Origin: Dysgonomonas sp.
Lineage (GTDB): Bacteria; Bacteroidota; Bacteroidia; Bacteroidales; Dysgonomonadaceae
DNA length: 64,000 nt
Direction: 5' to 3'
Assembly: GCA_047972895.1 (NCBI GenBank)
Contig: JBKEBA010000070.1
Location: 50-64,049, forward strand
Shown: positions 1 through 42,094 of the stretch, piece after piece
How the letters are laid out: each line of letters starts with the position of its first letter
How positions within the stretch are numbered: the first letter of the stretch is position 1
Notes under the pieces: generated by a model
What the model was told of the DNA's origin: nothing
The model's input: only the letters and a program-made list of their open reading frames with translations
Database searches by the model: none
Translations under genes and position numbers: made by a program

Positions 1-706
1 TAATATCAGAATGAGAACTCTTAAAGCCACTTTTAATAAGGCTATTAAGGATAATATAGTAAAACAGGATTATTATCCATTCAACAATTATAATGTATCT
101 AAATTGAAAGAAACCACTCCTAAAAGAGCTATATCAAAAGAAGACATATTAAAAATATTGGAATTTGATGTCAGTTTAATATCCAGAAGACCTCAATCTT
201 TATTACAGTTCAGTAAAGACTTGTTCCTATTCAGTTATTTAGGGTGTGGTATAAATATGGTGGATATGGCACATTTAAAAAGGAGTAATATAGTTTCAAC
301 CAGAATAGTCTATAAAAGGCATAAAACAGGAAAACAAATCAGTTTTCTATTACAACCTTATGCTTTAGAAATTATACAGAGATATGAGAATAGTAATAAT
401 GACTATATATTTCCTATTTTGGATGATTCTATACATGCTACAGCAGAACAGCAATTCAGAAGGATAAAGAAAGTAACCTATGTAGCTAATAAGAATCTAA
501 AGAAGATTGGGGAAAGCATTAATCTTTCTATTCCTCTGACTACATATTGTGCAAGACATTCATTTGCAACCATTTTGAAAAGGTCTGGAATTAATGTTGC
601 TATTATAAGTGAGGCTTTAGGGCATTCAGACTTAAAGACCACTCAGATATATTTAGATAGCTTTGAAAATAGTCAAATTGATGAGGCTATGAAGAATTTA
701 TTGTAA
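1..706 (+). CDS. Tyrosine-type site-specific integrase, C-terminal part (gene continues beyond the left edge)
   Basis: The frame is open from nt 2. C-terminal catalytic motifs 'ARHSFATILKRSGINVAIISEALGHSDLKTTQIYLD' (R..H..R/H..Y) are typical of Bacteroidota phage-integrase-family proteins. Confidence 0.85.
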   Translation, partial: NIRMRTLKATFNKAIKDNIVKQDYYPFNNYNVSKLKETTPKRAISKEDILKILEFDVSLISRRPQSLLQFSKDLFLFSYLGCGINMVDMAHLKRSNIVSTRIVYKRHKTGKQISFLLQPYALEIIQRYENSNNDYIFPILDDSIHATAEQQFRRIKKVTYVANKNLKKIGESINLSIPLTTYCARHSFATILKRSGINVAIISEALGHSDLKTTQIYLDSFENSQIDEAMKNLL

Positions 707-9301: not shown

Positions 9302-9679
9302 ATGAATTCAGATTTGAAAAAAGATATACTAAAAATTATTTCTGATATTGAATATGATGATACTTCCACATTTGAAAAACTCTATATATATGGCAGTTTA
9401 AATCAAATAATAAAATACTTTGAAAATCTTATTCAGACTAAATATAGAAATAGGTTAAATCGCTATTTAAAAGAATACACAAAAGAGTATTATGTATACA
9501 TAGATGAAATTATTAATCATTATTGCAATGTCTTTAAAGAGAGAGAGTATAAAAACATCTTATTAGAAAAAGAACTAAGGCTTAAAATTATAGATGAAAT
9601 TACACAAGAAATAAAAATAGAGTATATAGGAGAGGATTACTACATAAGTAAAGACTATTATACAAGAAAAAATTATTAA
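9302..9679 (+). CDS. Hypothetical small helical protein (125 aa)
   Basis: Last ORF of the island. Preceded by a bulged hairpin plus T-run at about 9227-9275. Confidence 0.4.
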   Translation: MNSDLKKDILKIISDIEYDDTSTFEKLYIYGSLNQIIKYFENLIQTKYRNRLNRYLKEYTKEYYVYIDEIINHYCNVFKEREYKNILLEKELRLKIIDEITQEIKIEYIGEDYYISKDYYTRKNY

Positions 9680-9804
9680 CCCAACTCCAAATGTTCTCTA
9701 AAATGTTACCAGCCTAAGAAATATTGTTCAAAGCAAGAAGAAATCACCCTGTAAAACACTATTATACAGTCAGATATATTTTTAATAAAATTCAGATTGT
9801 TATT

Positions 9805-9844
9805 CTTTCCAGGCGTGCCTCTTCAACCACTCGAGCACCTTTCC
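9805..9844 (-). pseudogene. 5' half of tRNA-Ser(GGA), truncated immediately after the anticodon loop
   Basis: The minus strand reads 'GGAAAGG TG CTC GAGTGGTTGAA GAG G CACGC CTGGAAA G'. That is the acceptor 5' arm, a 3-bp D-stem with the long Ser-type D-loop, the anticodon stem 5' arm and a loop with anticodon GGA. The next bases ('AATAAC...') cannot close the anticodon stem. Confidence 0.8.
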
Positions 9845-9867
9845 TAGTCCATTGGTTGTAGCGGATG

Positions 9868-9875
9868 CAAAGATA
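9868..9875 (-). promoter_or_regulatory. -7 promoter box TATCTTTG of the (now truncated) tRNA-Ser gene
   Basis: Perfect TAnnTTTG match 23 nt upstream of tRNA position 1 on the minus strand. Confidence 0.5.
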
Positions 9876-9945
9876 AGAGATATTTCGGGATTGACAAGAA
9901 ATAAGAAATAGTATTATTCGGGCATTTCGCCATGAAATTACTAAA

Positions 9946-11178
9946 TCAAGTTTCCTTTGTCAACTTCATTTCACGCTGCCTAATTATGCTTTTACCCAGT
10001 TTTTGGAACGGTTTTTCTATCAATCTATATGTTAAGTAAGATATCCCGACAGTAAGTATAAGAACTATTATATATCTAATTCCCAGATTCAATAAACTCC
10101 CACTTACCGTATCTGTAGATACATAATCTAGAAAATCAAATTTAAATAACCAATGAAGTACAACAAAATGCACTAAATACATACTATAGCTAATTTTCCC
10201 TAAGAACCGGCTTATAAAATTAACAAACAAGACAAATTCCTTTTGAGCTAAAGCATATCCAAGAGCAATGAAGACTATCGAAAATAGGATATGTTGTGAG
10301 TATAATTCACGTCCGGTAGCTATCTGTAATAAAAAACTCAGCGGAAAGAATAAAAGAATCACAGGATGTATTTTCCATTGTTCCTTTGGTGTATAAACAC
10401 TCAAATACTACGGAACAAGTTCCGCAGGTTGAAAGGTAAAAGGATAAATCCTTTTGCGTTAATACCTGTTTGAAAACAGGGGTTTTCTTTTCCCTAACGG
10501 GAAAATTCATCCGATAACTTGAAAAATAAAATATAAAAGGATACCACAAGCAAACACAGGTAGATGGTTAGGCAAGAAATAATACAGATAATCTTTCATC
10601 AAATGGTCGTCACCAAAAGGTATTTCTTTTATTAGAAAAGTGATACTGTGCTGGACTAAGACAGCTATAATAAATGCAATGCAGGCATGATTCAGATTCT
10701 TTATATATTTGAACAGAAACGGAACCATACAATAAAACATCATCTCATTAGTAATAGTCCACCCTCCGGGCACAACAGTATTTATCCAATAAGGACTTAA
10801 GCCATGAAGAAAAAAAGCACTTGAAATCACCGACCATACAGTTACATCAGGATGATAATCCGTCAACAAATATCCTATATACAAACGTTCTATAACATTA
10901 TATGCTATAGCAATATAAAACATAGGAGCAATGCGAAAAAAACGGCGGATAAAGAAATTTGAGTAAACATTGCTCTCTTGCTTAGATCTGTTATCTAGCG
11001 AAAGAAACAATGTAAATGCACTAACAATAAAAAATAATTGAACACCTCGACCACCATTCCCTACAATAGATTGTATAATATCCGGATAGTTATTTGTACC
11101 ATAACCGACACAATGCACCATTAAAACCGCAAGGACAGCAAATCCCCTGAGAGCATCAATATAACCGAGCTTATTCAT
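9946..11178 (-). pseudogene. Acyltransferase family 3 (OafA-like) membrane protein, broken into three frames
   Basis: The N-terminal part (10507-11178, 'MNKLGYIDALRGFAVLAVLMVHC') and the C-terminal part (9946-10404, '...SYSMYLVHFVVLHW') are in different frames. A third frame (10307-10549) bridges them. Confidence 0.6.
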
Positions 11179-11955
11179 TTATGTATCTAACCTGAACAGT
11201 TTCTTTGCGTTTTCCGTAGTAATTTCACCCACTTCCTCTACACTCACATTATATATTTCGGCTAGTTTATCTGCAACTTTTACCGTATATGACGATTCAT
11301 TCCGTTTACCTCTATATGGAACAGGAGCCAGATATGGAGCATCTGTTTCAATAATAATATGTGATAAATCTGTTAGTTTAAGGACGGCCGACAATGTCGA
11401 ATTTTTAAAAGTAACAACACCATTAATACCTAACAAGAAATTATTCAACGATAGAATATCACTTAGTTCCAGTTCCGTTCCACCGAAACTATGGAATACC
11501 CCTCGCAACTTTTCAACACCCACATTTTTTATACATGCTATACATTCCGATATGGCATCGCGCGAATGAATGGCGACAGGTAGATCAAATTCAATACTCC
11601 AACGCAATTGCTCCTCGAAAGCAAGTTTCTGCTCTTTTTCGTATGCCTTATCCCAATATAGGTCTAAACCAACTTCACCAATAGCAATATATTTACGATT
11701 ATTGAATTGTTGTCGAACCAAGTCCAATTGATTAATATAATCACCATCTACACTTGTAGGATGCAGACCCATCATAGGAATACAATAATCATTATACCTA
11801 TCAGACACAGCATGTATCCTCTCTATCGATGCCACATCAATATTAGGCAACAAAATTCTCTCTACGCCGACTCGTTTTGCCCTACCAATAACATCATCCA
11901 GGTCATTTTCGAACTCCTCTGAATAAATATGCGAATGTGTATCAATTATCTTCAC
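11179..11955 (-). CDS. tatD: TatD-family metal-dependent hydrolase/DNase
   Basis: 'IIDTHSHIY', 'GEVGLDLYW', 'PVAIHSRDA' and 'ETDAPYLAP' motifs. Confidence 0.85.
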   Translation of the reverse strand: MKIIDTHSHIYSEEFENDLDDVIGRAKRVGVERILLPNIDVASIERIHAVSDRYNDYCIPMMGLHPTSVDGDYINQLDLVRQQFNNRKYIAIGEVGLDLYWDKAYEKEQKLAFEEQLRWSIEFDLPVAIHSRDAISECIACIKNVGVEKLRGVFHSFGGTELELSDILSLNNFLLGINGVVTFKNSTLSAVLKLTDLSHIIIETDAPYLAPVPYRGKRNESSYTVKVADKLAEIYNVSVEEVGEITTENAKKLFRLDT

Positions 11956-14823: not shown

Positions 14824-14837
14824 AAATTTATAAAATT

Positions 14838-17485: not shown

Positions 17486-20455
17486 TTATCTCGCTTCCAA
17501 TATCCTCACAGGACCCAATAAACCGGATTTAGACATTGGCGAATCTTTAGTATAACGGCGAGCCGTTGTAAAAGTATATGCGCTGTCAGGTGGCAAACTA
17601 AGATCACCTATAAGCCTATTCACCCAGAGGTTAACCACCTCTATCTTTAGTTTATTTTCTCCTTGTTTTACCTGATTACTTATATTTAGCTGCCATGGGT
17701 GTGTCCATACAGTTCCAATTTCTTTATCATTCAGCCAGACTTTAGCCATTACGTTTACTTCTCCCAAATCAAGATAGATTTTTCCCGACACATTATCCGC
17801 TTCAAATCGCTGTTCGTAAATGGCTGTACCTGAATAATATTTGATACCATCATCTGGTGAAGTAGTCCAGTCCAGGAGCTTATCTAATGTAATCTTTTCG
17901 GGTCCGCCCCATATAGGATCAAACGAGACATCCCACGGTTTATCTAGCATTTGAACAGCAGTAAACGATGCAAAATTATTACCCTGTGATGACGAGCTAC
18001 CATGCTTACGAAATACTACAAAATAACTTTGATCGACATAGAACTGCATCGGGATAATTGTTTGCCCGTCTTGCAAAATATAATGCTCAATTTCCCTGAT
18101 TTCTCCTGTTACAGCATCCCACAATTCAGGGATCATATTACTTATACGGAAAGTACATTCTGTGCTGACTATTTCTCCTGAGCGGTTAGCCACGAAGTAT
18201 ATATCATATCCGTCTGATGTACGGTGAGCATAACGCAGATTACCATCAGCAATAAAGTCTTCGGGAATATTCATTTTAGTAAGGATACGTGCTGTGCAAT
18301 TGTAGTCAGGATAGAGATTATCCTGATTGTTTAGGATTTCTTCTCCCCATATGATTTTTCCTTTACCTATTATGCGTTCTTCCATCCCCTGAGGAATTGA
18401 ACTTTCTCCCCATATTTCTTTTACCAGAGAAGCGATTTCCTCATCGCATTGTGGATAATTCTGTAAGCTCGGCGATTTCTTAGGAGGCATGCCTACGACT
18501 GTTGCCCCATTTACTATCAGTTCCTTTATCTTCCGAAGTATTTCCGGCGTCATAGTCTCCAAGAGAGGAAGTGCAAGCAAATGATATTGAGCTCCACTCG
18601 AGAATACTATCTTTCCGTCTTTTACAGAAGCACTGTATAAGAAGCTCGGAGGACACGCGTCAAAAGCATACCCCTTCTTATCAGGAAGAAATTCACTTCC
18701 TTCATAAGCAGAAACAGGAGCACGGAATACGTGAGGATTACCTTCGGGACAGAAATAAAGAATATCTGAGACTGTCCGCCCTTGTTGCATCATAAACTGA
18801 CTACGCGAAAGGTAAGTGTGATAAGCCTTTCCCATTTCCCACCACGTTTGGTTACGATCCCAATGTACACCATAAGGCCCCATTGTCATTCCGGGACGCA
18901 AACTATCAGCAAGGCATTGATGTTGGAAAGTATGGAACATAAACCTATTTACACCTCCTGCCAATGCCCAATCAGTTTGGTTCTTCATCTTGCCCGGATA
19001 CTGATCCCAACCATCAAACTGTGCGGTAAAACTTTCCGCAGGCACTACCGACTGCCCTTTTAGATGAGCAATTGATGTACCTTCTGCTAAACTGAAAGAG
19101 GTATTAAATCCGTAGCCTTCGCTCCAATATTCACACATAGGAACATCGGCAATAGCAGCAAGTTCTAAATCTGCTGTGGGATTCATATCATATGGTTCTA
19201 TAGATAAGCCCAGCCCAAACTTATGAGCATATTCCCTGATATAAGTAGCATGATTCTTAAGGATCAATTCCTGTACAGTCTTACGTAAATCCCACAGAAA
19301 TCTTTCACTTAATTCTTTACTACCAACTATTACACCGGAATATGCCGGATAATAAGGTTGAGGATCGTATCCTCTGCGTGATTTAAATTCATCTCGAAAT
19401 TTGTCTGTCCAATTCTGCGCCCCCATCTCCCAGCTATCCATATGCAGCATTGTTAGCCCTCCCGAAGGGGATTTTGATGTTCTCTTTTGGAAACCTATAT
19501 GACGGAAAAGCTCACCCACAAAATTATCTAAATGATGAGAAATAGCTATCGTATCCAGCTTATCAGATTCAAATCCTAATCCCGGAGTAGGTGCAGGCCG
19601 TGTGATTGCTCCGTTGTTCCGTACTCCGAATCTCATTATTGTCCATTTGCCGGGAGGGAGTTCACCCTCTATACTTCCATCGGGTTCCATCCATGAAGTA
19701 ATTTCTATTATATCATTTGGATTTACGGCTGCCCCTGTAGCATCGGGGTATGAAGATTGCATTGGCAGAAATTGTTTTACTCCGGGTGCTGAACTATATG
19801 GAGCTCTATAATAAAGTGCTTTTTCGTCAGTATCAGTAATAGTCTCACTTCCCTCACAAGCAGGAAATGCCAACACGGCAACATCTTCATAATATTCCAG
19901 CCATTGCTTGTGAAGTTCGGGCGTAAAACTACCTTCTCCGAAAAAAGGCGCTTTAGGCATAGGTTGAGGTATTACGGTATTTTTCAGTTCCGAACTGTTT
20001 ATTGTAATACTACTTGAGACCAAATGCTTCATCGATTCTTCAGGTTTTACCCAGGGGCCTCCGCTTCCAGTCCAGCCGGGACCTACCCCGAGAGTCATCT
20101 CTACTCCTAGCCTTTCACATTCGCTTACTGCATGTTTAAACATATCTTTCCATTCGGTACTAAGCATATCTACTTTGCCCCGAGGTACACCTACATTCAC
20201 TTCGAGAAAAATGACATGTGAAATTCCTACCCGAACCATAGACTCCAGATCTTTCGTCATGCCTTCCTTTGACATATTGCCATCCATGAAATACCAATAG
20301 ACACCGGATTTTGCAGATACCGGAGGATTTCTAAATCCTTCTTCCAACGATACATCAGCTTGCCCTATATTTCTGTCGCAATTCGACATAAAAAGGATAA
20401 ATATTAGACAAAAGACTAATGTAGAAGCACATATGCGAAAATATCTATAATTCAT
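17486..20455 (-). CDS. Large secreted glycoside hydrolase, GH106-like (putative alpha-L-rhamnosidase)
   Basis: The N-terminus 'FRNPPVSAKSGVYWYFMDGNMSKEGMTKDLESM' resembles Bacteroidales GH106-type enzymes. C-terminal jelly-roll segment 'VWLNDKEIGTVW'. Start set at 'MNYRYF...LFMSNC' (lipobox); the track's start is 20485. Confidence 0.55.
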   Translation of the reverse strand: MNYRYFRICASTLVFCLIFILFMSNCDRNIGQADVSLEEGFRNPPVSAKSGVYWYFMDGNMSKEGMTKDLESMVRVGISHVIFLEVNVGVPRGKVDMLSTEWKDMFKHAVSECERLGVEMTLGVGPGWTGSGGPWVKPEESMKHLVSSSITINSSELKNTVIPQPMPKAPFFGEGSFTPELHKQWLEYYEDVAVLAFPACEGSETITDTDEKALYYRAPYSSAPGVKQFLPMQSSYPDATGAAVNPNDIIEITSWMEPDGSIEGELPPGKWTIMRFGVRNNGAITRPAPTPGLGFESDKLDTIAISHHLDNFVGELFRHIGFQKRTSKSPSGGLTMLHMDSWEMGAQNWTDKFRDEFKSRRGYDPQPYYPAYSGVIVGSKELSERFLWDLRKTVQELILKNHATYIREYAHKFGLGLSIEPYDMNPTADLELAAIADVPMCEYWSEGYGFNTSFSLAEGTSIAHLKGQSVVPAESFTAQFDGWDQYPGKMKNQTDWALAGGVNRFMFHTFQHQCLADSLRPGMTMGPYGVHWDRNQTWWEMGKAYHTYLSRSQFMMQQGRTVSDILYFCPEGNPHVFRAPVSAYEGSEFLPDKKGYAFDACPPSFLYSASVKDGKIVFSSGAQYHLLALPLLETMTPEILRKIKELIVNGATVVGMPPKKSPSLQNYPQCDEEIASLVKEIWGESSIPQGMEERIIGKGKIIWGEEILNNQDNLYPDYNCTARILTKMNIPEDFIADGNLRYAHRTSDGYDIYFVANRSGEIVSTECTFRISNMIPELWDAVTGEIREIEHYILQDGQTIIPMQFYVDQSYFVVFRKHGSSSSQGNNFASFTAVQMLDKPWDVSFDPIWGGPEKITLDKLLDWTTSPDDGIKYYSGTAIYEQRFEADNVSGKIYLDLGEVNVMAKVWLNDKEIGTVWTHPWQLNISNQVKQGENKLKIEVVNLWVNRLIGDLSLPPDSAYTFTTARRYTKDSPMSKSGLLGPVRILEAR

Positions 20456-33466: not shown

Positions 33467-34237
33467 ATGAATATATCTGCTGATAAACTTCTTTATCAGA
33501 TAGCCCTCACGAAAATACCGGGAGTAGGTGACATCACAGCCCGAAACATACTACAAGTAGTCGGAGATGAAGAAGAAATATTCAAATCGAATAGAAAAAC
33601 ATTATCAAAAATACAGGGACTGGCCTCTAGACTTGTAGATGAAATCCTAAATCCAATAGTTTTAAGAAAGGCCGAAGAGGAATTAGCTTTCATCGAAAAA
33701 AGTAATATATCTACGTTTTTCATCTCCGATAAAAATTATCCTCATCGCCTGAAAGAATGTATAGATGCCCCTATTCTACTCTATTTCAAAGGAAATACAG
33801 ACTTCAATGCCGATAAAGTTATCAGTATTGTAGGTACACGCAACTCGACTACTTACGGAAATAATTTCTGTGACTCTTTTATAGAAAGTGTGTCCTCTAA
33901 CCTACCAGACACACTAATCATCAGTGGATTGGCTTATGGAATCGATATACAGGCACACAAATCTGCATTAAAGTATAATTTACCTACAATCGGAGTGCTT
34001 GCACATGGATTGGACAGAATTTATCCTCCTGTTCATCGGCAGACAGCAAAAGATATGCTCAACAACGGAGGAGTACTTACAGAGTTTCCGAGTAAAACGG
34101 AACCTGATCGTTTCAATTTTGTACGTAGAAACCGTATTGTTGCAGGTATGGCAGATGCTATAATTGTAGTAGAATCAGATAAAAAAGGAGGTTCTCTTAT
34201 TACAGCAGAAATCGCTAATTCTTATTATAAAGCGTAA
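33467..34237 (+). pseudogene. dprA: dprA (smf) 5' fragment: codons 1-253 plus 3 element-derived codons and a stop
   Basis: 'LTKIPGVG' SAM-like domain. Rossmann core 'IVGTRNST.YG', 'SGLAYGID' and 'DKKGGSLITAEIA'. The protein ends prematurely at '...ANSYYKA*'. Confidence 0.9.
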
Positions 34238-34404
34238 AATTATTAGTAGTTCTTTTTTGTGTGTAAATTATTGATAATTATACATTTACACAGGATAAAA
34301 ATATTTATAATAACCTAATAATTAAACAGTTACATATTGTGTATATAAGATATTTTTAGTAACTTCAAGTAATAATTCAGTAAATAACCACTAAATTAAA
34401 AACT

Positions 34405-35301
34405 ATGGAGTTAGTAAATTACAATGATGTATCACAATTAAAGAACAGTATTTTTGATTGTATAGATGTTACCGAGAACACACGGAAAGAGTATCTGACC
34501 CGGATTAAACACTTTATCCATTTTGTAAAACTACACGGAATTAATTCCAATACTTATTTAGAGTATAAACGCTATTTAAGTTCTATCGACACGCTAAGTG
34601 TTTCCACAAAGAATAAGTATCTAATTTCCGCTAAGATTTTTATTGATGGTCTGAATAACTTACAACAATTCCCTTTCCAGATTAATACAAAAGTAAGAGG
34701 ATTTAAACAAAGTAAGCTACACAAGAAAGATGGTCTTTGTGATGAGGATATTTCTAAGATTGTAGATTATTGTTCTTCATTAGAACCAACAATTCAAAAC
34801 CTGCGATTAAAGTCTATTTTATCATTACTAATATTTCAAGGTTTGCGCCAAGTAGAAATAACACGTCTAAATGTAACCGATATTAACATGAAAGATAAGA
34901 CCGCTTTTATTATCGGAAAAGGACAGGACGATAAAGAGCTTATTCATTTGCATCCCTCAACCATTAAAGTATTAAAAGAATATCTACACACAAATAGAAT
35001 AAGAGAGGGGGCAGTATTCCGAAGCGGAAGTAATTTCTCTTCGGGTAGTCGATTAACGACAAAATCCATTCGAGAGATAATCAAAAAAGTTCTAAACGAA
35101 TTAAATATTGACGGAAGTACCCACGGCTTCCGTCATTTTTTTATAACCAAATTAATAAAATCCTATAAAGGTGAATTATTGACCGTTTCTAAATACAGCC
35201 GTCATAGAAGTATTCAGATGTTAGAAGTCTATAATGACGAGATAATAAGAGAACAGGATTTGCCGCGTTTTTACAACGTATTTAGCGATATTACACTATG
35301 A
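34405..35301 (+). CDS. Tyrosine recombinase, XerC/D-like (298 aa)
   Basis: N-terminal SAM-like core-binding region. Catalytic 'GLRQVEITRL', 'HGFRHFFITKL' and 'SRHRSIQMLEVY'. Confidence 0.8.
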   Translation: MELVNYNDVSQLKNSIFDCIDVTENTRKEYLTRIKHFIHFVKLHGINSNTYLEYKRYLSSIDTLSVSTKNKYLISAKIFIDGLNNLQQFPFQINTKVRGFKQSKLHKKDGLCDEDISKIVDYCSSLEPTIQNLRLKSILSLLIFQGLRQVEITRLNVTDINMKDKTAFIIGKGQDDKELIHLHPSTIKVLKEYLHTNRIREGAVFRSGSNFSSGSRLTTKSIREIIKKVLNELNIDGSTHGFRHFFITKLIKSYKGELLTVSKYSRHRSIQMLEVYNDEIIREQDLPRFYNVFSDITL

Positions 35302-35864
35302 GTGATATAAATACATACGACAGAAATATTTATTGTTTAGAGGGTAACTGGAATAAGAATCCACGAAGCCATCAGAGTGTAAAACCGATGTTGGAATTAC
35401 TCCGCACTTTTGCCAATATCAAATATGTATATTATAAATGTGATACTAAAGATGAATTCTTTTACCGCCTGCAACAATTTACAAAAGGAACTTATAAAAA
35501 CTATCCTATACTATATTTAGCGTTTCACGGACGCACAAATCGAATTATTGTAGAAAATCAACATATAGCATTAAAAGAGATCGCAACGGCTTTAGAGGGC
35601 AAATTAGATAACAAAATCGTACATTTTGGAAGTTGTTCTACTTTGCGTACCTCGGAAAAGAATATCCAAAATTTTATAATTGCTACAAATTGCCAGTTTA
35701 TTTCGGGTTATCGAAAATTTGTAGATTATATTGATGCTTGTGCGTTTGAATTACTATATTTTGATTTGTTGCAAAAATATAAGTCTGTAAGGAAAATTGA
35801 TTCTGAAATTTTCAGTTTGTCTTCTCAACTGACAAATAACAAATTGAAATTTGTTATGTATTGA
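35298..35864 (+). CDS. Hypothetical 188-aa protein with a His...Cys dyad in a caspase/CHAT-like strand context
   Basis: An ATGA start/stop overlap with the recombinase indicates translational coupling. 'ILYLAFHGRTN' ... 'KIVHFGSCST'. The fold assignment is inference only. Confidence 0.45.
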   Translation: MSDINTYDRNIYCLEGNWNKNPRSHQSVKPMLELLRTFANIKYVYYKCDTKDEFFYRLQQFTKGTYKNYPILYLAFHGRTNRIIVENQHIALKEIATALEGKLDNKIVHFGSCSTLRTSEKNIQNFIIATNCQFISGYRKFVDYIDACAFELLYFDLLQKYKSVRKIDSEIFSLSSQLTNNKLKFVMY

Positions 35865-35870
35865 AGCAAA

Positions 35871-35897
35871 AACGCCAGTAATTAAAATACTGGCGTT
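35871..35897. terminator. Bidirectional hairpin terminator between convergent genes
   Basis: 'AACGCCAGTA'-attaaaa-'TACTGGCGTT', with T-rich runs on both strands. Confidence 0.7.
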
Positions 35898-35923
35898 CTT
35901 GTTTTTATGTATTTGTCAATATA

Positions 35924-37840
35924 TCAATATCCTGGATTTTGTGTCATTTTAGGGTTAGCATTCATCTCTGATATAGGGATAGGCAATAAAAGTTTATTTT
36001 CCGAAATTCCTAGCACTTGTTTTGCTTTATCGAAACGTTTTAGAGCATAGAAATATGCTCCCTCATTTTTTAAATCTTCTTTCCATTCATTTAATAATGA
36101 ATCTTCAATATTAGAAGAACTGTTAATTGGAGTACGACCGTTTCTTTCTCTAACTTGGTTTAAATAAACAATAGCTTGGTTGGTATTACCTAATTTAAGG
36201 CTCGCTTCCGCAGCCATTAATAAGATTTCGGAATAACGACAAACAGCTATGTTATCCCCTTTTTTAATTAAATCTCGATAAGGAATACTCGAATAGTCAT
36301 CAGAGTTTGGCAATTCTAAAATATTTTCCTTATTATTTCCTGTATATATAGAATTAATATCACTGCTTAGGGAGAACTTGCCACTATTGATTATAATATT
36401 AGTAGCTTCCAATGCTCTATTATATTCTTTGTTTTGCAAGAATGCTCGTACTTGGATAGCTTTTGCAAAATATTTAGAGCATTCAAATTGATAGCTACTT
36501 TCTGGTAAATATTGATAAGCTACCTCTAGTTCATTAATAATAAAATCCAAGACTTCTTTTTGAGAAGTGCGAGCAAAATAAGGGTTATCCATGATGTTTG
36601 AAGATGTAACTAAAGGTATATCCCCCCATAGAGCTACCATATTCAGATACTTATATGCTCGATAAGTTCTTGAATAATATTGATATTTTTTGAACCAATC
36701 TAAATTAGTTTCATTCGATTTCTCTGTAAGTACATTATCATATCTTATCGCCTTATATGAAGAACTCCACAAATTACTTGGTAAAGCCATATAAGATGTA
36801 ATATTATGCTCATAAATTGATTTTAGCTCATAGTAACGGCTAAGATTATCACTACTAACTGTATTTGTATATATTCCGTCAAAAAGATATTGGTTTTGGA
36901 TGAATGTGTATAGTTGAGCCACAGATGCGGTACAGAATTGCTTTACCCGTTCTTCTGATTCAAATACGTTCTCTTCTGTGATAACATCATTCGGTACACT
37001 TTCTTCGTATGAGTCTCCTATTTGCCCATCTCCATCACCATCAATAAACAATTCAAAACTTCCAATTTCGACAGTTTTACCTAATTCTTCATATCTTTTC
37101 TTGATATTTTCTTTTATATTGGAATAACTTAGTCCAAGACTTGATTCTGCAATTTTATTTTTAGTGTCTTGAGTTATCGTTCCATCAGAAAGGTCGTTTC
37201 TGAGCGAACTCATAAATTCTGTAAATTGAGCATCACTTCTTTCATTTAATAAGATAGATGATATTGCTATTAATATATTTGCAGATGTATTATTAGCTGT
37301 TATACTGGTTTCCTCTGGGGTTATTGGTTGATTGGTTATTAGGAAAGCGTTTAACAACTCTTTTTGAGCTTGTTGTTTTGCTTCTTGAAAGTTTTTACCC
37401 GAAGATACGAGATTCATAACACGGGGCATTTCTAAGTGCGTTAATATATTTACATTTACATTGGCTTTATCAACATTGTCAATAGAACTTATTGCCTCTA
37501 AAGAAATCGGAGCATCAGAAAGACGTCCAGTATATTCATTAAAATAAAATCCATTTACTGAAAGCTTAACATATTTAGAGACTAAAGATGTTGATGTATT
37601 TATTGAAAATGCACCTTCATTGTCTGTTTTGGCTTCGAATACACGTCCTGTTGCATTTAGATTATTGTCCAATTCATAGATGCTAACAGAAGACCCTGAA
37701 ACAAAAGGACCTTTTTCAACCAAGCCCTTAACACTACCAATGCTTACACTCCCTGAATTATCATCATCACTGCTACATGAGATAAAACATAAAAGAGAGA
37801 TTATTCCGATTAGTAATGAAAATAATAGATTTTTTTTCAT
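35924..37840 (-). CDS. SusD/RagB-family lipoprotein with a roughly 270-aa N-terminal extension (carboxypeptidase-regulatory-like beta-sandwich)
   Basis: Lipobox 'CFISC'. SusD hallmarks 'ALWGDIPLV', 'RYSEILLMAAEA' and the C-terminus 'LLPIPISEMNANPKMTQNPGY'. There is no adjacent SusC/TonB-dependent transporter gene. Confidence 0.75.
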   Translation of the reverse strand: MKKNLLFSLLIGIISLLCFISCSSDDDNSGSVSIGSVKGLVEKGPFVSGSSVSIYELDNNLNATGRVFEAKTDNEGAFSINTSTSLVSKYVKLSVNGFYFNEYTGRLSDAPISLEAISSIDNVDKANVNVNILTHLEMPRVMNLVSSGKNFQEAKQQAQKELLNAFLITNQPITPEETSITANNTSANILIAISSILLNERSDAQFTEFMSSLRNDLSDGTITQDTKNKIAESSLGLSYSNIKENIKKRYEELGKTVEIGSFELFIDGDGDGQIGDSYEESVPNDVITEENVFESEERVKQFCTASVAQLYTFIQNQYLFDGIYTNTVSSDNLSRYYELKSIYEHNITSYMALPSNLWSSSYKAIRYDNVLTEKSNETNLDWFKKYQYYSRTYRAYKYLNMVALWGDIPLVTSSNIMDNPYFARTSQKEVLDFIINELEVAYQYLPESSYQFECSKYFAKAIQVRAFLQNKEYNRALEATNIIINSGKFSLSSDINSIYTGNNKENILELPNSDDYSSIPYRDLIKKGDNIAVCRYSEILLMAAEASLKLGNTNQAIVYLNQVRERNGRTPINSSSNIEDSLLNEWKEDLKNEGAYFYALKRFDKAKQVLGISENKLLLPIPISEMNANPKMTQNPGY

Positions 37841-37875
37841 GCTGTATTTATTTTTTGAAAGTTTTGGCTCTGTTT

Positions 37876-38169
37876 TTACTCGAAAGACATTTCTATTTTT
37901 TCTATCAATTTCGATGATGGAAAAAGTAAGTCTAATAAAAGTAATAAAGATTCTTCGGAAGTTGGGGTAAGTCCATGATATATTAATTTGCTCCCTTCAA
38001 ATACCAACATATCAACACCTCCTCCAGTATTTACAGATAGTTTATCATGTTTATAATAGAAAATAGAAATGTTATCTTTTTCTACATGATGGCAGGTGTC
38101 TTTTTTTATTTTCTTAAATCCTAAATTTTCAAAACACTTGCTTATATTAAAGTCTGTTTGTATAAACAT
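37876..38169 (-). CDS. Hypothetical small protein (97 aa)
   Basis: ORF between the Rep-like and SusD-like genes, on the same strand. Confidence 0.4.
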   Translation of the reverse strand: MFIQTDFNISKCFENLGFKKIKKDTCHHVEKDNISIFYYKHDKLSVNTGGGVDMLVFEGSKLIYHGLTPTSEESLLLLLDLLFPSSKLIEKIEMSFE

Positions 38170-38275
38170 ATAATTTATTCTGTATTGTAATTTTTATTTC
38201 TATTTACTAATAATATTAATTATTCTTACTTATTAGAGTAGGGAAAAGTTGTGTATTTTTGTATTCTGTGGAATT

Positions 38276-39292
38276 CTATTTACTGTATAATCTTGTATCG
38301 TGAACTATATTTATAGTCTCTGCAAATTTAGATTTTAATTCAAGTACATTTTCAGTTTCTTTTAGCAAATCAAATTCTTTCTCTAAAGATTTCTTTAGTT
38401 TTTTTACAGCTCTGTATTCTTTCACTCCCTCTTTATCGTCGAGTCTGTATTCTTCAATAAAAGAGCGATACAAGTCATAAGTATCAGATGTTACAAATAT
38501 ATAATTTTTTATTTCTTCAAACGATTTTCCTGCATGATTTTTACCTAAATCTCTTAATACAATTTTCTCAAACACATTTCTAAGGATGCGAGCAAATCTC
38601 GAATAGAAGCGAATATGTAATAAATGCTCTGCGGTAAATGTTGAATCTTTTATATTCTTAAACCCCATTGCTGAATATTTTCCTGATTTTAGTTCTACTT
38701 CATAACGCAAAATATTAGAGAGTATCAATGTTTTTTTCTCAACTGAAAGAGGATGTCTTGCTTCAAATGTCTTATCGTAAAATTTAATTATGTAATCCGT
38801 GTATTGACATAATTTACCTCGTAAATGAGGACTATTTTTGAGAGGTCTCATATAAATGAAAGGTCTTTTTTTATAGAGGTGTACCATATTTATATATCGC
38901 ATTGGCTCTTTTGAAACTTCTATATTCACCCCTATTTCAATACTTGTAATTATAATTTTATTTAAAGAAATATCCAACCTTTTCCCCAAATCAGATATCG
39001 CTTGTTGTGCATCATTTGCTGTAAATGTGGAATAGTTTTCTTTTCTTTTAAATTTGTGCAATGAACCATGCCCACTTAATACCCAGCGTTTTTCTTCCTT
39101 ATTTCGCACTTTAACCAATTTGACTTCAATTTCCATTGTTTCATTAAGAGTTGCTCCCCATACAGAAACGCCCCTTTTATCAAGTGCTATAATATCTAAT
39201 TCTTCTTTTGAGGTTTTTGCATATTTCAAAAAAGTCTTTTCTAACTTTTCAACATCTACATCATCTACGTAAAATACTATTTTATCTATCAT
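38276..39292 (-). CDS. Replication-initiator-like protein (resembles the phage/plasmid gene II/X or Rep_trans rolling-circle families)
   Basis: Start set at 'MIDKIVFYV...'. N-terminal 'MID...' and 'LSGHGSLHKFKRKENYSTF' resemble the 'GNPxKFLQGHNxFG' region of gpII-like Reps. This is recalled, not searched. Confidence 0.4.
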   Translation of the reverse strand: MIDKIVFYVDDVDVEKLEKTFLKYAKTSKEELDIIALDKRGVSVWGATLNETMEIEVKLVKVRNKEEKRWVLSGHGSLHKFKRKENYSTFTANDAQQAISDLGKRLDISLNKIIITSIEIGVNIEVSKEPMRYINMVHLYKKRPFIYMRPLKNSPHLRGKLCQYTDYIIKFYDKTFEARHPLSVEKKTLILSNILRYEVELKSGKYSAMGFKNIKDSTFTAEHLLHIRFYSRFARILRNVFEKIVLRDLGKNHAGKSFEEIKNYIFVTSDTYDLYRSFIEEYRLDDKEGVKEYRAVKKLKKSLEKEFDLLKETENVLELKSKFAETINIVHDTRLYSK

Positions 39293-39381
39293 GGCTACGA
39301 TTATAAAGTTCAATAATGATAAATATTTCAAACTTTAATGTAGCTATAAAAATAATACGATGCAAATCGGCTTATTAAGAT

Positions 39382-41655
39382 TTATTGAGCATCAACACAT
39401 TCAAATAAATCTTGTTCTTCATTATATGCCATGATTAAAGTAATATATTCCCGACTATATCCACCAAAACCATTTTTAGCTCGATAATCTACAATACATT
39501 GCCATCCGTTTTTTGTTTTTCCAATACATTTTACTTTTTCAATCTTCAAACTTTCCGGTTCTCGTAGTAATTTATAAAGTAAGGTAGTTGCATTTTCCTT
39601 TGCCCAAAATTCAATATTATCTTTATCTTCACTTCCATAAAGGATAAAGCGAGCATACTGCTTATCATATTTCCGACACGCTTTTTCATACTCTTTTCTT
39701 GATATTGGTAATTTATTGCCTGTGGAGTCAATTTGTTCCATAGTAACCCACCAATTCTCAAATAGAAGTTTTTGAATTTTCTTATGGGATACTTTCCTAT
39801 TGCTAAATACATCTCTTACTTTATCCAATTCCATCAATTCATTATATAAGCTATCAAATTGTGTTTTATATAGATTTGCAAAATCCGAATCGGATAATAC
39901 CTTTTGCGGTTCGGGTTCTCGTGTTTCTACGTAATTATCGGTTATTGCAGAATTAGAGTTATCTAAATTTTTAGTTTCCGATATTGGGGGCAAATTGTGT
40001 CCTGCAATAATAACAAATAAGAAGAACAGGAAAAAGCTAACTCCGAAAATAAATAATCTCTTTCTTTTTATATTCAGCTTTTTCGGTAGTACGTATTGTG
40101 GCTTTATCATTCCTACAATAAAAATTACAGGTTGTCCCAAAGCTAAAAACATCAATATAACAGCAAGTATTTTCATAAAATTGTTTGTTGAACGTTTGAT
40201 AAGTATAATTAAAACCTCTCGAATAAACTGCTTGAACAAATACTCCACCCTACTTATATCATTTCTTGTTTCCTCAATCATTTTCTTTAAATCAATAACA
40301 TTATCAAGCGAAGATTGCTTTAAACTTTCTTTCAAATATTTGATCTCTTTTCTTAATATACCATTTTCTCTTGTAAAATTTTTAATCTCTACATCACACC
40401 TATGTCCTTCTTTCGCTACATGGTCAACTGTATATCCTTTGCGTAGTAATGATACTAAGTCTTCTTTCCATTTTTCCCGTTGATTAATATTCTTTCTATT
40501 TAAAGAGAACAATTCTTGTTTTTCCTCAATTTCTTTCTCTAGACTTTTCTTGTTAGATTTTTGATTAACAATATACCATTCAAAATTCTCTGTCTTCTGT
40601 AAGACATCCCAAACAATCGCATCTGCTCGAAAGTTATTTATATTGATATGCTCATCATAATATAATTTTCTTGAAGCACAAGTAATGCCTTGTAGTTTGC
40701 TTTTACATATTCCACATTTAATAAGAGGTTTTAATGGATAAATGAACTTCCTTGTTCTTCTCCCATATATCTCGCGTTTATCTTCAATAATATTCTCAAC
40801 CTTGTCGAATAAATCTCTTGATATAATTGCAGGAACTGTACCTTGCCATTTTCCGTATTTACGTTCTCCAATATAATTTTTTCTATGCAACAAGCGACCT
40901 ACATTTGAATCCTCCCAGAGTTTACCTAGTGGACTTGGTATTTTTCTACCATTCAAGAAATCGGCAATCTTAGTAAAAGACCATTTTTCATTAACATATT
41001 TGTCAAATATAAGCTTTACTGTTTCTGCTTCAACCTCATTTATCTCAATATAAGATTTGTTTCCTCGTTGTACTACTTTATAGCCATAAACCATTCTACC
41101 TCCAACATATCTATGAGGGTCGTTCTCAAATACATATTTTTTCCCTCTTTGCATTCTTTTTGTAATGTCACTAAGTTCTTGTTCTATATGCACTGATAAA
41201 AATGAGATATGAGTATCTGTGATCTTATCTACTTCTAATGTATCTAAATTTAAAGTAGTTAATTTATGATGAATAAAATGTATAGGTTTTTTTAAAATAT
41301 TGAAAAATTCAAGATGAGTAAACAAAGAAGCTTTTCTTCTGGAAAGACGAGACATTTCCCAAATGAAAATCATTTCAATTTGTTCTCTTGTTTTAGGATT
41401 TTGACAAGCTTCTTTTAGATTTAATAATGATTCGGAATCTTCGACACGAATTAAAGAACCTGTTTCGTTTCCCTCATTATCCAATTCTTTTATAAATTGA
41501 GGTCGATCACCTGATATCTTTTCTCCAAAATAAAATTTATCAGGTATTATATAACCCATTTTTTCAGCAGCTTCTTCAATCGCATTTTTTTGAGATTCTA
41601 AATCTTGTTGATTAGAAGAGACACGGAGTAAGGCAGCTGCAATCTTTTCTTCCAT
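39382..41655 (-). CDS. Large serine recombinase fused in frame to a 2-TM, roughly 265-aa C-terminal domain
   Basis: Start set at 'MEEKIAAALLRVSSNQQD' (catalytic Ser). 'SRLSRR', recombinase domain 'GGRMVYGYKV', zinc ribbon 'CGICKSKLQG' and a coiled coil. From nt 40176 downward: 'MKILAVILMFLALGQPVIFIVG...LFIFGVSFFLFFLFVIIAG' plus a soluble domain. Confidence 0.8.
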   Translation of the reverse strand: MEEKIAAALLRVSSNQQDLESQKNAIEEAAEKMGYIIPDKFYFGEKISGDRPQFIKELDNEGNETGSLIRVEDSESLLNLKEACQNPKTREQIEMIFIWEMSRLSRRKASLFTHLEFFNILKKPIHFIHHKLTTLNLDTLEVDKITDTHISFLSVHIEQELSDITKRMQRGKKYVFENDPHRYVGGRMVYGYKVVQRGNKSYIEINEVEAETVKLIFDKYVNEKWSFTKIADFLNGRKIPSPLGKLWEDSNVGRLLHRKNYIGERKYGKWQGTVPAIISRDLFDKVENIIEDKREIYGRRTRKFIYPLKPLIKCGICKSKLQGITCASRKLYYDEHININNFRADAIVWDVLQKTENFEWYIVNQKSNKKSLEKEIEEKQELFSLNRKNINQREKWKEDLVSLLRKGYTVDHVAKEGHRCDVEIKNFTRENGILRKEIKYLKESLKQSSLDNVIDLKKMIEETRNDISRVEYLFKQFIREVLIILIKRSTNNFMKILAVILMFLALGQPVIFIVGMIKPQYVLPKKLNIKRKRLFIFGVSFFLFFLFVIIAGHNLPPISETKNLDNSNSAITDNYVETREPEPQKVLSDSDFANLYKTQFDSLYNELMELDKVRDVFSNRKVSHKKIQKLLFENWWVTMEQIDSTGNKLPISRKEYEKACRKYDKQYARFILYGSEDKDNIEFWAKENATTLLYKLLREPESLKIEKVKCIGKTKNGWQCIVDYRAKNGFGGYSREYITLIMAYNEEQDLFECVDAQ

Positions 41656-41728
41656 AGTGACTTTTTTATTACTTTTATGAGGATAAAGATAATAAAAAAA
41701 GTACACCGAATAACTTTACGCAATATAA

Positions 41729-42094
41729 TACTGTAAAGATGTCTTTGCCCTTCCAGGAAAGATAAGCGATAAATATTCTCGTGGATGTAATAAACTAATA
41801 GCCTCACACAAAGCAGACCTGTTTCAATCCACAGAATATTTTCTACAACAAATGGGATGGGACAACGAAACAGAGAGAAAAAGAAAGGCTCCGCAACAAC
41901 AGGAACTATTCATCAATCTTACAGATGAGGAACAATCGATAAGAGACAAAGTAAAAGAAAAAGAACCTGTACATATAGACCAATTAGCTCGTGACCTGGA
42001 TTTACCTGCCTATCAATTATTTTCCACATTGCTAGAATTGGAAATGAAAGGTATTATAAAAAATCAGCCGGGAAACCTATATACATTAAACTAA
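41729..42094 (+). pseudogene. dprA: dprA 3' fragment (120 codons, no start codon of its own until 41852)
   Basis: The frame opens right after a stop at 41726-41728: 'YCKDVFALPGKISDKYSRGCNKLIASHKADLF...' through the C-terminal winged helix 'LFSTLLELEMKGIIKNQPGNLYTLN'. Confidence 0.85.

Follow-up and report, generated by a model that had tools for sequence, protein, structure and literature searches.

The dprA gene in the window analysed here, a stretch of 64,000 nucleotides from a Dysgonomonas sp. contig (JBKEBA010000070.1), lies in two parts separated by foreign DNA, which raises the questions of what brought that DNA in, between which base pairs it entered, and whether it can still leave. 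The answer that we favour, with a probability of roughly 0.88, is that positions 34225-41728 form a 7.5-kb island that entered dprA by recombination catalysed by a large serine recombinase (LSR) at a TA dinucleotide, between an element site (attP) of about 50 bp with dyad symmetry and a host site (attB) within ANSY|CKD, and that the copy in the window has since become stranded. The comparisons of genes, junctions and related elements that lead to this reading are given below, and the coordinates of all features are collected in Table 1.

Judged from its reading frame, DprA is truncated by the insertion after residue 253 of 373. Joining position 34224 to 41731 yields a DprA of 373 amino acids, with 90% identity to an intact homolog (P0001) from end to end, and this length is shared by hundreds of DprA proteins from Dysgonomonas or 'Prevotella'; PF17782 (WHD_DprA) was found in DprA homologs. 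As it stands, the open reading frame (ORF) spans 33467-34237, with its stop at 34235-34237 and a tail of NSYYKA. In the clades whose arms are of the GCGTAA type, the arm motif gives an in-frame TAA four codons past the junction, whichever arm adjoins it (34232-34237 in the window; 9933-9938 in the related element L005; L006), and the resulting DprA tails end in YYKA, YMCA and YYIA, respectively. The truncated DprA thus ends almost at once in these clades because the arm motif itself supplies the stop; the clade of L011 has no such early stop.

The left junction, within 34205-34249 (GCAGAAATCGCTAATTCTTATTATAAAGCGTAAAATTATTAGTAG), reads GCTAATTCT-TA-TTATAAAGCGTAAAATTATTAG with its TA at 34223-34224, and the right junction, within 41700-41745 (AGTACACCGAATAACTTTACGCAATATAATACTGTAAAGATGTCTT), reads GAATAACTTTACGCAATATAA-TA-CTGTAAAGATGTC with its TA at 41729-41730. 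Both had been quoted in the initial annotation, made from the letters of the window, and both were found where it had placed them. Aligned in the register of the dyad, the two junctions (attL and attR) are identical at the TA (34223-34224), at T 34226 and at TAAAG (34228-34232, right copy 41734-41738), the last being their longest identical run. Three rejoinings keep the frame, namely NSY-CKD (exchange at the TA), NSYY-KD (exchange within TAAAG) and NSYYCKD (exchange at the next TA, 34226-34227, which had also been proposed earlier to restore the frame and does so); other registers break it. The G of the Cys codon (41733) is present on the right flank only, so the exchange must lie to its left; in that stretch attL and attR have just one dinucleotide in common, the TA at 34223-34224, to which the crossover was therefore assigned. 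Read from 41729, the right flank gives TAC TGT AAA GAT, that is, YCKD in frame.

A crossover at TA 34226-34227 or within the shared TAAAG, with an empty site of AATTCTTATTATAAAGATG, would likewise restore the ORF (as NSYYCKD or NSYYKD), and TAAAG is the longest stretch that attL and attR have in common. We nevertheless regard either placement as very improbable. Intact DprA homologs collected by a motif search keep the spacing SY-x-x-D in 105 of 105 cases, overwhelmingly as ANSYCKD (e.g., ANSYCKDVFA), with one Tyr, after which comes Cys or, in rare cases, Asn or Asp; a Tyr-Tyr pair or an additional residue occurs in none of the 105. Contigs that carry an empty site amid the same neighbouring genes (L001-L003) read AATTCA-TA-TTGTAAAGAC or AATTCA-TA-TTGTAAAG, with one TA each and TA-TTGT as the DNA at the crossover. 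The G of the Cys codon, confined to the right flank, is a further point against these placements, and in elements of other clades the TA is common to all junctions whereas TAAAG is not. The earlier preference for the TA at 34223 over that at 34226, which had been based on symmetry, is therefore upheld on separate grounds, by the intact DprA homologs and the empty-site DNA.

The assignment to the TA at 34223-34224 also centres the symmetry of the rebuilt element site. Joining the element ends gives an attP for the window clade of AATAACTTTACGCAATATAA-TA-TTATAAAGCGTAAAATTATT, in which the arm at 41709-41728 (reverse complement TTATATTGCGTAAAGTTATT) faces the arm at 34225-34244 (TTATAAAGCGTAAAATTATT); read inward from the TA, the inverted arms match at 17 of 20, 19 of 25 and 23 of 30 positions. 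Random pairs of inverted 20-mers, 200,000 drawn from the window and 200,000 from the element, had a mean of 5.4-5.7 matches, and 17 or more matches occurred in 0 of the 400,000 pairs (maxima 16 in the window and 15 in the element; binomial P(>=17) = 2.7e-7). The 17/20 dyad noticed at first is thus far above chance. A scan of 15 nucleotides to each side detected no rival dyad axis, and high scores were obtained only through the TA centre. The segment between the junctions (34225-41728) measures 7,504 bp and has 30% G+C, compared with 36% in the flanks.

Related elements were sought through the recombinase gene at the right end of the island. Twelve homologs with 45-90% identity were found, nearly all in Logan assemblies, together with two Dysgonomonas genomes, and ten loci were recovered, mostly Logan contigs found by exact-protein look-up. 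Counting the window, L004, L005, L006, L007, L008-10, L011, L013, L022, L023 and L024, eleven independent elements with an LSR of at least 45% identity and a readable junction were available, and in all eleven the junction with dprA falls on the TA of this one Tyr codon; they come from at least six host backgrounds. LSRs with about 30% identity (L016-L021; Paludibacter and metagenomes) do not adjoin dprA, and when genomes and metagenomes were scanned with the LSR alignment, the only additions were remote LSRs, at about 30% identity and again outside dprA. The five complete elements measure between 7.5 kb and about 11 kb (L008, 9,722 bp). When the ends of the homologous elements were aligned, the symmetric arms proved to be kept in all five, with 17, 15, 13, 15 and 16 matches of 20, and each clade of the serine recombinase has its own motif on both arms (Table 1). 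The serine recombinase is the sole gene common to all elements, and its start always lies about 75-100 bp inside one end; in the window, the ATG at 41655 is 74 nucleotides from the TA, in agreement with the approximately 75 bp given before. The comparison with related elements supports the earlier proposal of a dimer-binding serine-recombinase site with a 2-bp TA crossover.

A different picture emerged for the host half-sites. According to the initial annotation, the attP pattern persists in attB in a weaker form, but the symmetry of the attB arms (5-9 of 20) and the identity between B-type and P-type arms (1-9 of 20) are at chance level. What the two kinds of half-site have in common is a G at position 8 from the crossover, present in 25 of 25 half-sites (15 P-type and 10 B-type). 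In addition, the outer attB positions 11-22 resemble the attP arms best when shifted by +5 (identity 0.49, against 0.18-0.37 at 13 other shifts), in a set of attB sequences that are not independent of one another; the G invariant at position 22 in attP and the G invariant at position 17 in attB correspond at this 5-bp offset. In the LI/A118 integrase, the motif of the zinc-ribbon domain is offset by 5 bp, its place in attB being nearer to the centre (PMC3783163). The attB/attP offset seen here is suggestive of the same arrangement.

These half-sites also bear on whether the island might be a transposon with terminal inverted repeats and TA target duplication, similar to IS630/Tc1-mariner elements. 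The integrated footprint would be the same for both mechanisms, with inverted-repeat ends flanked by TA and a single TA in the empty site. No DDE transposase domain was detected among the element genes with Pfam, NCBIfam or PADLOC, however, and all eleven elements occupy one TA although TA is very frequent in an AT-rich genome, which requires recognition of an extended attB. Moreover, the offset of +5 bp at which the outer attB arm best matches attP would be the mark that zinc-ribbon domains leave on LSR sites (PMC3783163). The probability of a transposon is accordingly very low.

The element carries a second recombinase gene, for an Xer-like tyrosine recombinase (34405-35301), which might be the integrase, with the serine recombinase serving as cargo or as an invertase. 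This PF00589 gene lies 180 bp inside the left end and reads inward, an integrase-like position, and it is kept in the same place in L004. By contrast, the complete elements L005 and L008 occupy the identical TA without any PF00589 gene, and the sole PF00589 gene in L011 and L012 is an interior fragment of 195 amino acids. Tyrosine integrases exchange strands across an identical overlap of 6-8 bp; attL and attR of the window share an identity of 2 bp, and no longer direct repeat flanks the element. The co-variation of the 25-bp symmetric arms with the serine recombinase clade also speaks against a tyrosine integrase, and we consider this assignment highly improbable.

Integration by the serine recombinase would follow the course known for LSRs. 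An integrase dimer would bind each site and two dimers would synapse; all four strands would be cut at the central dinucleotide with a 2-bp stagger, half of the complex would rotate by 180 degrees, and the ends would be religated, which would leave one TA at each junction. Since TA is its own reverse complement and the sites would be functionally symmetric, integration would occur without polarity, and excision would restore dprA exactly.

Both orientations were indeed found, as expected because the palindromic TA removes polarity. The recombinase adjoins the C-terminal part of dprA in six elements (window, L004, L011, L013, L022 and L024) and the N-terminal part in five (L005, L006, L007, L008-10 and L023). 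Two recombinases that are 92% identical, P0124 of L004 and P0123 of L006, belong to elements in opposite orientations, and the arm of L006 is identical to that of the window. Published work on Bxb1 and phiC31 likewise predicts that a palindromic central dinucleotide leads to insertion in either orientation.

Indirect signs of recent mobility come from the break points of Logan contigs. These are assembled with k = 31, so that a contig broken at a branch of the graph includes 30 nucleotides of the shared path (PMC12424806). The head and tail of L008 and the heads of L013 and L023 each extend for a total of 30 nucleotides into sequence shared with the empty site (Table 1), and L024 starts 30 nucleotides before its arm (1-30). 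As the Logan contigs end k-1 = 30 nucleotides into sequence shared with the empty site, both occupied and empty dprA alleles are implied in those samples, and by these break points the two alleles diverge at the TA.

The serine recombinase belongs to a family remote from the integrases that have been characterised. Its start is the ATG at 41655 on the minus strand, and the N-terminus MEEKIAAALLRVSS is kept in 12 of 12 homologs, as are, across homologs, an RVSS motif with the invariant S13 and the invariant pair C314/C317 (CxxC). The family profile matches SprA (9dxh, E 4.4e-24) and the C-terminal domain of the A118 integrase (4kis, 5.6e-11). The AlphaFold model of a full-length homolog (P0124), with a mean predicted local distance difference test score (pLDDT) of 76, comprises the catalytic domain, the alpha-E helix, the recombinase domain, a zinc ribbon (312-354), a coiled coil (356-446) and a beta-rich domain (477-565). 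PF13408 was undetected in the clade of window-type LSRs, and NCBIfam gives the LSR no name. In phage and plasmid collections its identity to anything is at most 27%, confined to the N-terminal half, and no relatives were found in IMG/VR.

The copy in the window is itself damaged. Residues 1-483 are 82-90% identical to homologs of 596 amino acids, and the DNA follows L004 over 9562-11442 and resumes at 14831, so that 3.39 kb (L004 11443-14830) are missing; beyond this gap, window 40211-39254 aligns to L004 14831-15788 with 91% identity. The deletion breakpoint lies at about 40211, and the recombinase codons from about 483 onwards are gone together with three downstream genes. The membrane ORF that now supplies the C-terminus is a separate gene in L004 (14866-15660), and the odd product of 757 amino acids arose because the deletion fused the remainder of the recombinase in frame to it. 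Just past the breakpoint, 12 of 12 homologs have a conserved block (VYNPxKxWV...NRQSK), with which the beta domain begins in the model, and the window recombinase is therefore short of its C-terminal 115 residues including this conserved domain. The copy in the window is most likely stranded, with intact att sites but predicted to be immobile unless a related recombinase is given in trans.

It might alternatively be supposed that the element is intact and active, the 757-residue protein being a natural variant with a membrane-anchored C-terminal domain, since the fusion is in frame and uninterrupted and keeps the catalytic, recombinase, zinc-ribbon and coiled-coil regions. This we hold to be unlikely. 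The architecture occurs in 0 of 18 database homologs, all of which align only to the first 64% of the protein, L004 encodes the fused part as a gene of its own, 3.4 kb with three other genes are gone, and the lost block is conserved in 12 of 12 homologs of at least 45% identity.

Several points weigh against an LSR island that is now stranded. No excised circle or attP junction was seen, and the attP pattern is absent from IMG/VR. No recombination directionality factor was assignable among the unannotated ORFs of the element; known directionality factors are small and mutually unrelated, and they are needed for excision in known LSR systems. The genomes with empty sites belong to other species (DprA at most 90% identical), so the ancestral attB of the source strain is a reconstruction from them. 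The core shared in L004 and L008 measures 3-5 bp (ATATT and ATA), and the TA is singled out as the crossover only in the window and, by parsimony, across the elements. The presumed loss of function of the truncated recombinase is derived from conservation. Finally, the two orientations could come from inversion in situ and not from non-polar integration, both of which need a palindromic core.

As for its expression, the recombinase gene probably carries its own promoter inside the element. A candidate -7 box of the Bacteroidetes type lies upstream of the gene (Table 1), and an aligned upstream block was present in 11 of 11 regions, 30-40 nucleotides from the crossover, mostly as TTATCTTTG or TTACATTTG and as TTATCTTTA in the window clade; the block fits the Bacteroides -7 consensus, TAnnTTTG. 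The candidate promoter overlaps the outer P arm, which suggests that autoregulation by the bound recombinase is allowed. The initial annotation had proposed that expression could depend on the integration state. The sequence upstream of the gene is not the same in the two orientations, and read-through from dprA into the recombinase gene would be possible only when the recombinase adjoins the N-terminal part of dprA.

The orientations lend themselves to a broader and more speculative proposal, which we put forward as doubtful: that the LSR clade gave up polarity by means of the palindromic TA, that its islands enter dprA either way and might flip by recombination between attL and attR, that the two orientations are not equivalent, and that the family is the first recorded set of dprA-targeting elements in Bacteroidales that prevent transformation-mediated chromosomal curing. 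If this were true, a recombinase beside the N-terminal part of dprA would be co-directional with dprA, and read-through from the dprA promoter would be possible; excision and the restoration of DprA would then be coupled to dprA induction, similar to an 'active lysogeny' switch, while the opposite orientation, as in the window, would be that of a locked element. Apart from this proposal, the family puts to a natural test the rule by which the polarity of an LSR depends on its central dinucleotide alone: with a palindromic TA, the elements are found at about 1:1 in orientation.

Among known systems, a close parallel is the integrase of the Listeria phages A118, U153 and phi10403S, which recombines into comK. 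Like the window system, it has an LSR whose attP, about 50 bp long, is pseudo-palindromic and whose attB is weakly symmetric, and both families target the coding region of a competence-related gene, with a 2-bp crossover and a gene that is, or here would be, restored exactly on excision (PMC3556126, PMC3783163). They differ in that the A118 crossover is GG, non-palindromic and used in one orientation, whereas that of the present family is TA, palindromic and found in both. Furthermore, A118 is a phage in comK of a Firmicute, while the present elements are islands of 7.5-11 kb without phage genes in dprA of Bacteroidales; the protein similarity to the A118 integrase is remote, and the window family has an extra conserved beta-rich C-terminal domain.

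The best match among solved structures (9dxh) is SprA (YokA) of SPbeta, which acts on spsM of Bacillus subtilis. SprA acts with the directionality factor SprB at a common core of about 16 bp. Its identity to the window recombinase is low, and the target and the host phylum differ. As outlined in a report on this system (PMC5499854), SprA is an LSR that splits a host gene, which is rebuilt on excision. With regard to polarity, the relevant comparison is with Bxb1 and phiC31. Their natural cores are GT and TT, respectively, and a palindromic core is an artificial mutation there, whereas in the present clade it is apparently the natural state throughout; the 6:5 split of orientations is the outcome that the experiments with palindromic cores predict.

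The dprA target also places the family among elements that disrupt transformation genes. Mobile elements inserted in comYC, comGA, comFA, comEC, ssbB, comM and comK are described in passages of two publications, where such insertion is read as the defence of the element against chromosomal curing (PMC12378983, PMC12637031), and the section of the 2025 review on targeted integration into competence factors does not name insertion into dprA (PMC12378983). The islands described here would add dprA to the transformation genes targeted by mobile elements and appear to be a new member of the LSR integrative elements, the features of note being a natural palindromic crossover, two natural orientations and the dprA target. 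To our knowledge, natural transformation has not been established in Dysgonomonas. The family also provides an attP/attB pair at base resolution, with natural variants from five clades, for an uncharacterised family of Bacteroidales LSRs, and genetic tools for Bacteroidales are still limited; the understanding of the LSR mechanism is unchanged by these findings.

Table 1. Positions of the split dprA gene, attachment sites, recombinase and cargo in the window, ends of related Logan contigs (positions within the contig), and arm motifs of the element clades.
Feature	Position	Strand	Description
dprA, N-terminal part	33467-34224	+	252 codons, then TA as the first two bases of codon Tyr-253; PF02481 (E 8.8e-62) matched over profile positions 2-181 of 212
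attL	34198-34249	.	B half-site 34198-34222, TA 34223-34224, P' half-site 34225-34249; collinear with empty sites L001-L003 up to the TA
Left crossover TA	34223-34224	.	First two bases of the conserved Tyr codon, ANSY|CKD; same position in ten related elements
P' arm, recombinase-distal	34225-34249	+	TTATAAAGCGTAAAATTATTAGTAG; element-specific sequence from 34225; homologous to the L004 distal arm TTATTATGCGTAAAATTATTAGTAG
Xer-like tyrosine recombinase	34405-35301	+	PF00589, E 1e-19; under every NCBIfam cut-off; in L004, not in L005 or L008
DUF6642 protein	35298-35864	+	PF20347, E 2.7e-35; beside the tyrosine recombinase in L004 too
SusD-like lipoprotein, 638 amino acids	35924-37840	-	PF07980 and PF14322; in L004 too
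Two ORFs of unknown function, 97 and 351 amino acids	37876-38169, 38276-39331	-	Collinear with L004 15750-17228
Foreign C-terminal 275 codons, in-frame fusion	39382-40209	-	From a separate membrane ORF of 264 amino acids and its leader
Large serine recombinase, first 482 codons	40210-41655	-	PF00239 and PF07508; catalytic domain, alpha-E helix, recombinase domain, zinc ribbon, coiled coil
Candidate Bacteroidetes-type -7 box of the recombinase gene	41684-41691	-	TATCTTTA; inside the element
P arm, recombinase-proximal	41704-41728	-	Inward from the crossover TTATATTGCGTAAAGTTATTCGGTG; same as the L006 arm; near-identical to the L004, L023 and L024 arms
attR	41704-41755	.	P half-site, TA, B' half-site 41731-41755
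Right crossover TA	41729-41730	.	
dprA, C-terminal part	41729-42094	+	121 codons; end of the Rossmann domain and winged-helix domain
L008 contig, head	1-30		Flank ending with TA, 30 nucleotides; further nucleotides shared with the empty site, 0; total 30
L008 contig, tail	9753-9781		Flank starting with TA, 29 nucleotides; further shared, 1 (A); total 30
L013 contig, head	1-30		Flank, 30 nucleotides; further shared, 0; total 30
L023 contig, head	1-28		Flank, 28 nucleotides; further shared, 2 (TT); total 30
Motif on both arms, window, L004 and L006			GCGTAAARTTATT
Motif on both arms, L005			GTGCGTAATTTAAT
Motif on both arms, L008			TGCGTAWAKTTRTTAG
Motif on both arms, L011 and L013			AAAGATTTTAATT...CTGCTG

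Capsid, tail, terminase or lysis genes, such as a prophage would carry, were not detected among the element genes with Pfam and NCBIfam, and PADLOC recognised no defence system in the cargo. A conserved module (window 34405-37840, corresponding to L004 17266-20690) consists of the Xer-like gene, the DUF6642 gene and the convergent gene for the SusD-like lipoprotein, without a SusC partner; no clear inverted repeats that would mark an invertible segment were found at the Xer-like module. The ORFs of 97 and 351 amino acids had no matches in Pfam, NCBIfam or PADLOC.

The cargo of the sister elements is variable and includes AbiTii, AbiH, a Ser/Thr protein kinase, NADAR and HAD proteins, an LRR protein, WYL, small resolvases and short tyrosine recombinases, and defence-like or abortive-infection genes are abundant in L008, L012, L013, L005 and L011. 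The family thus looks like a carrier of variable small islands, and not like a phage or a conjugative element. In addition, L005, which disrupts dprA, carries at 18285-19736 a DprA-like (PF02481) gene of its own, which encodes a fusion with a HAD hydrolase (483 amino acids) that is 29% identical to the host DprA and might replace it, act as a decoy, or be an unrelated effector of the SLOG type.

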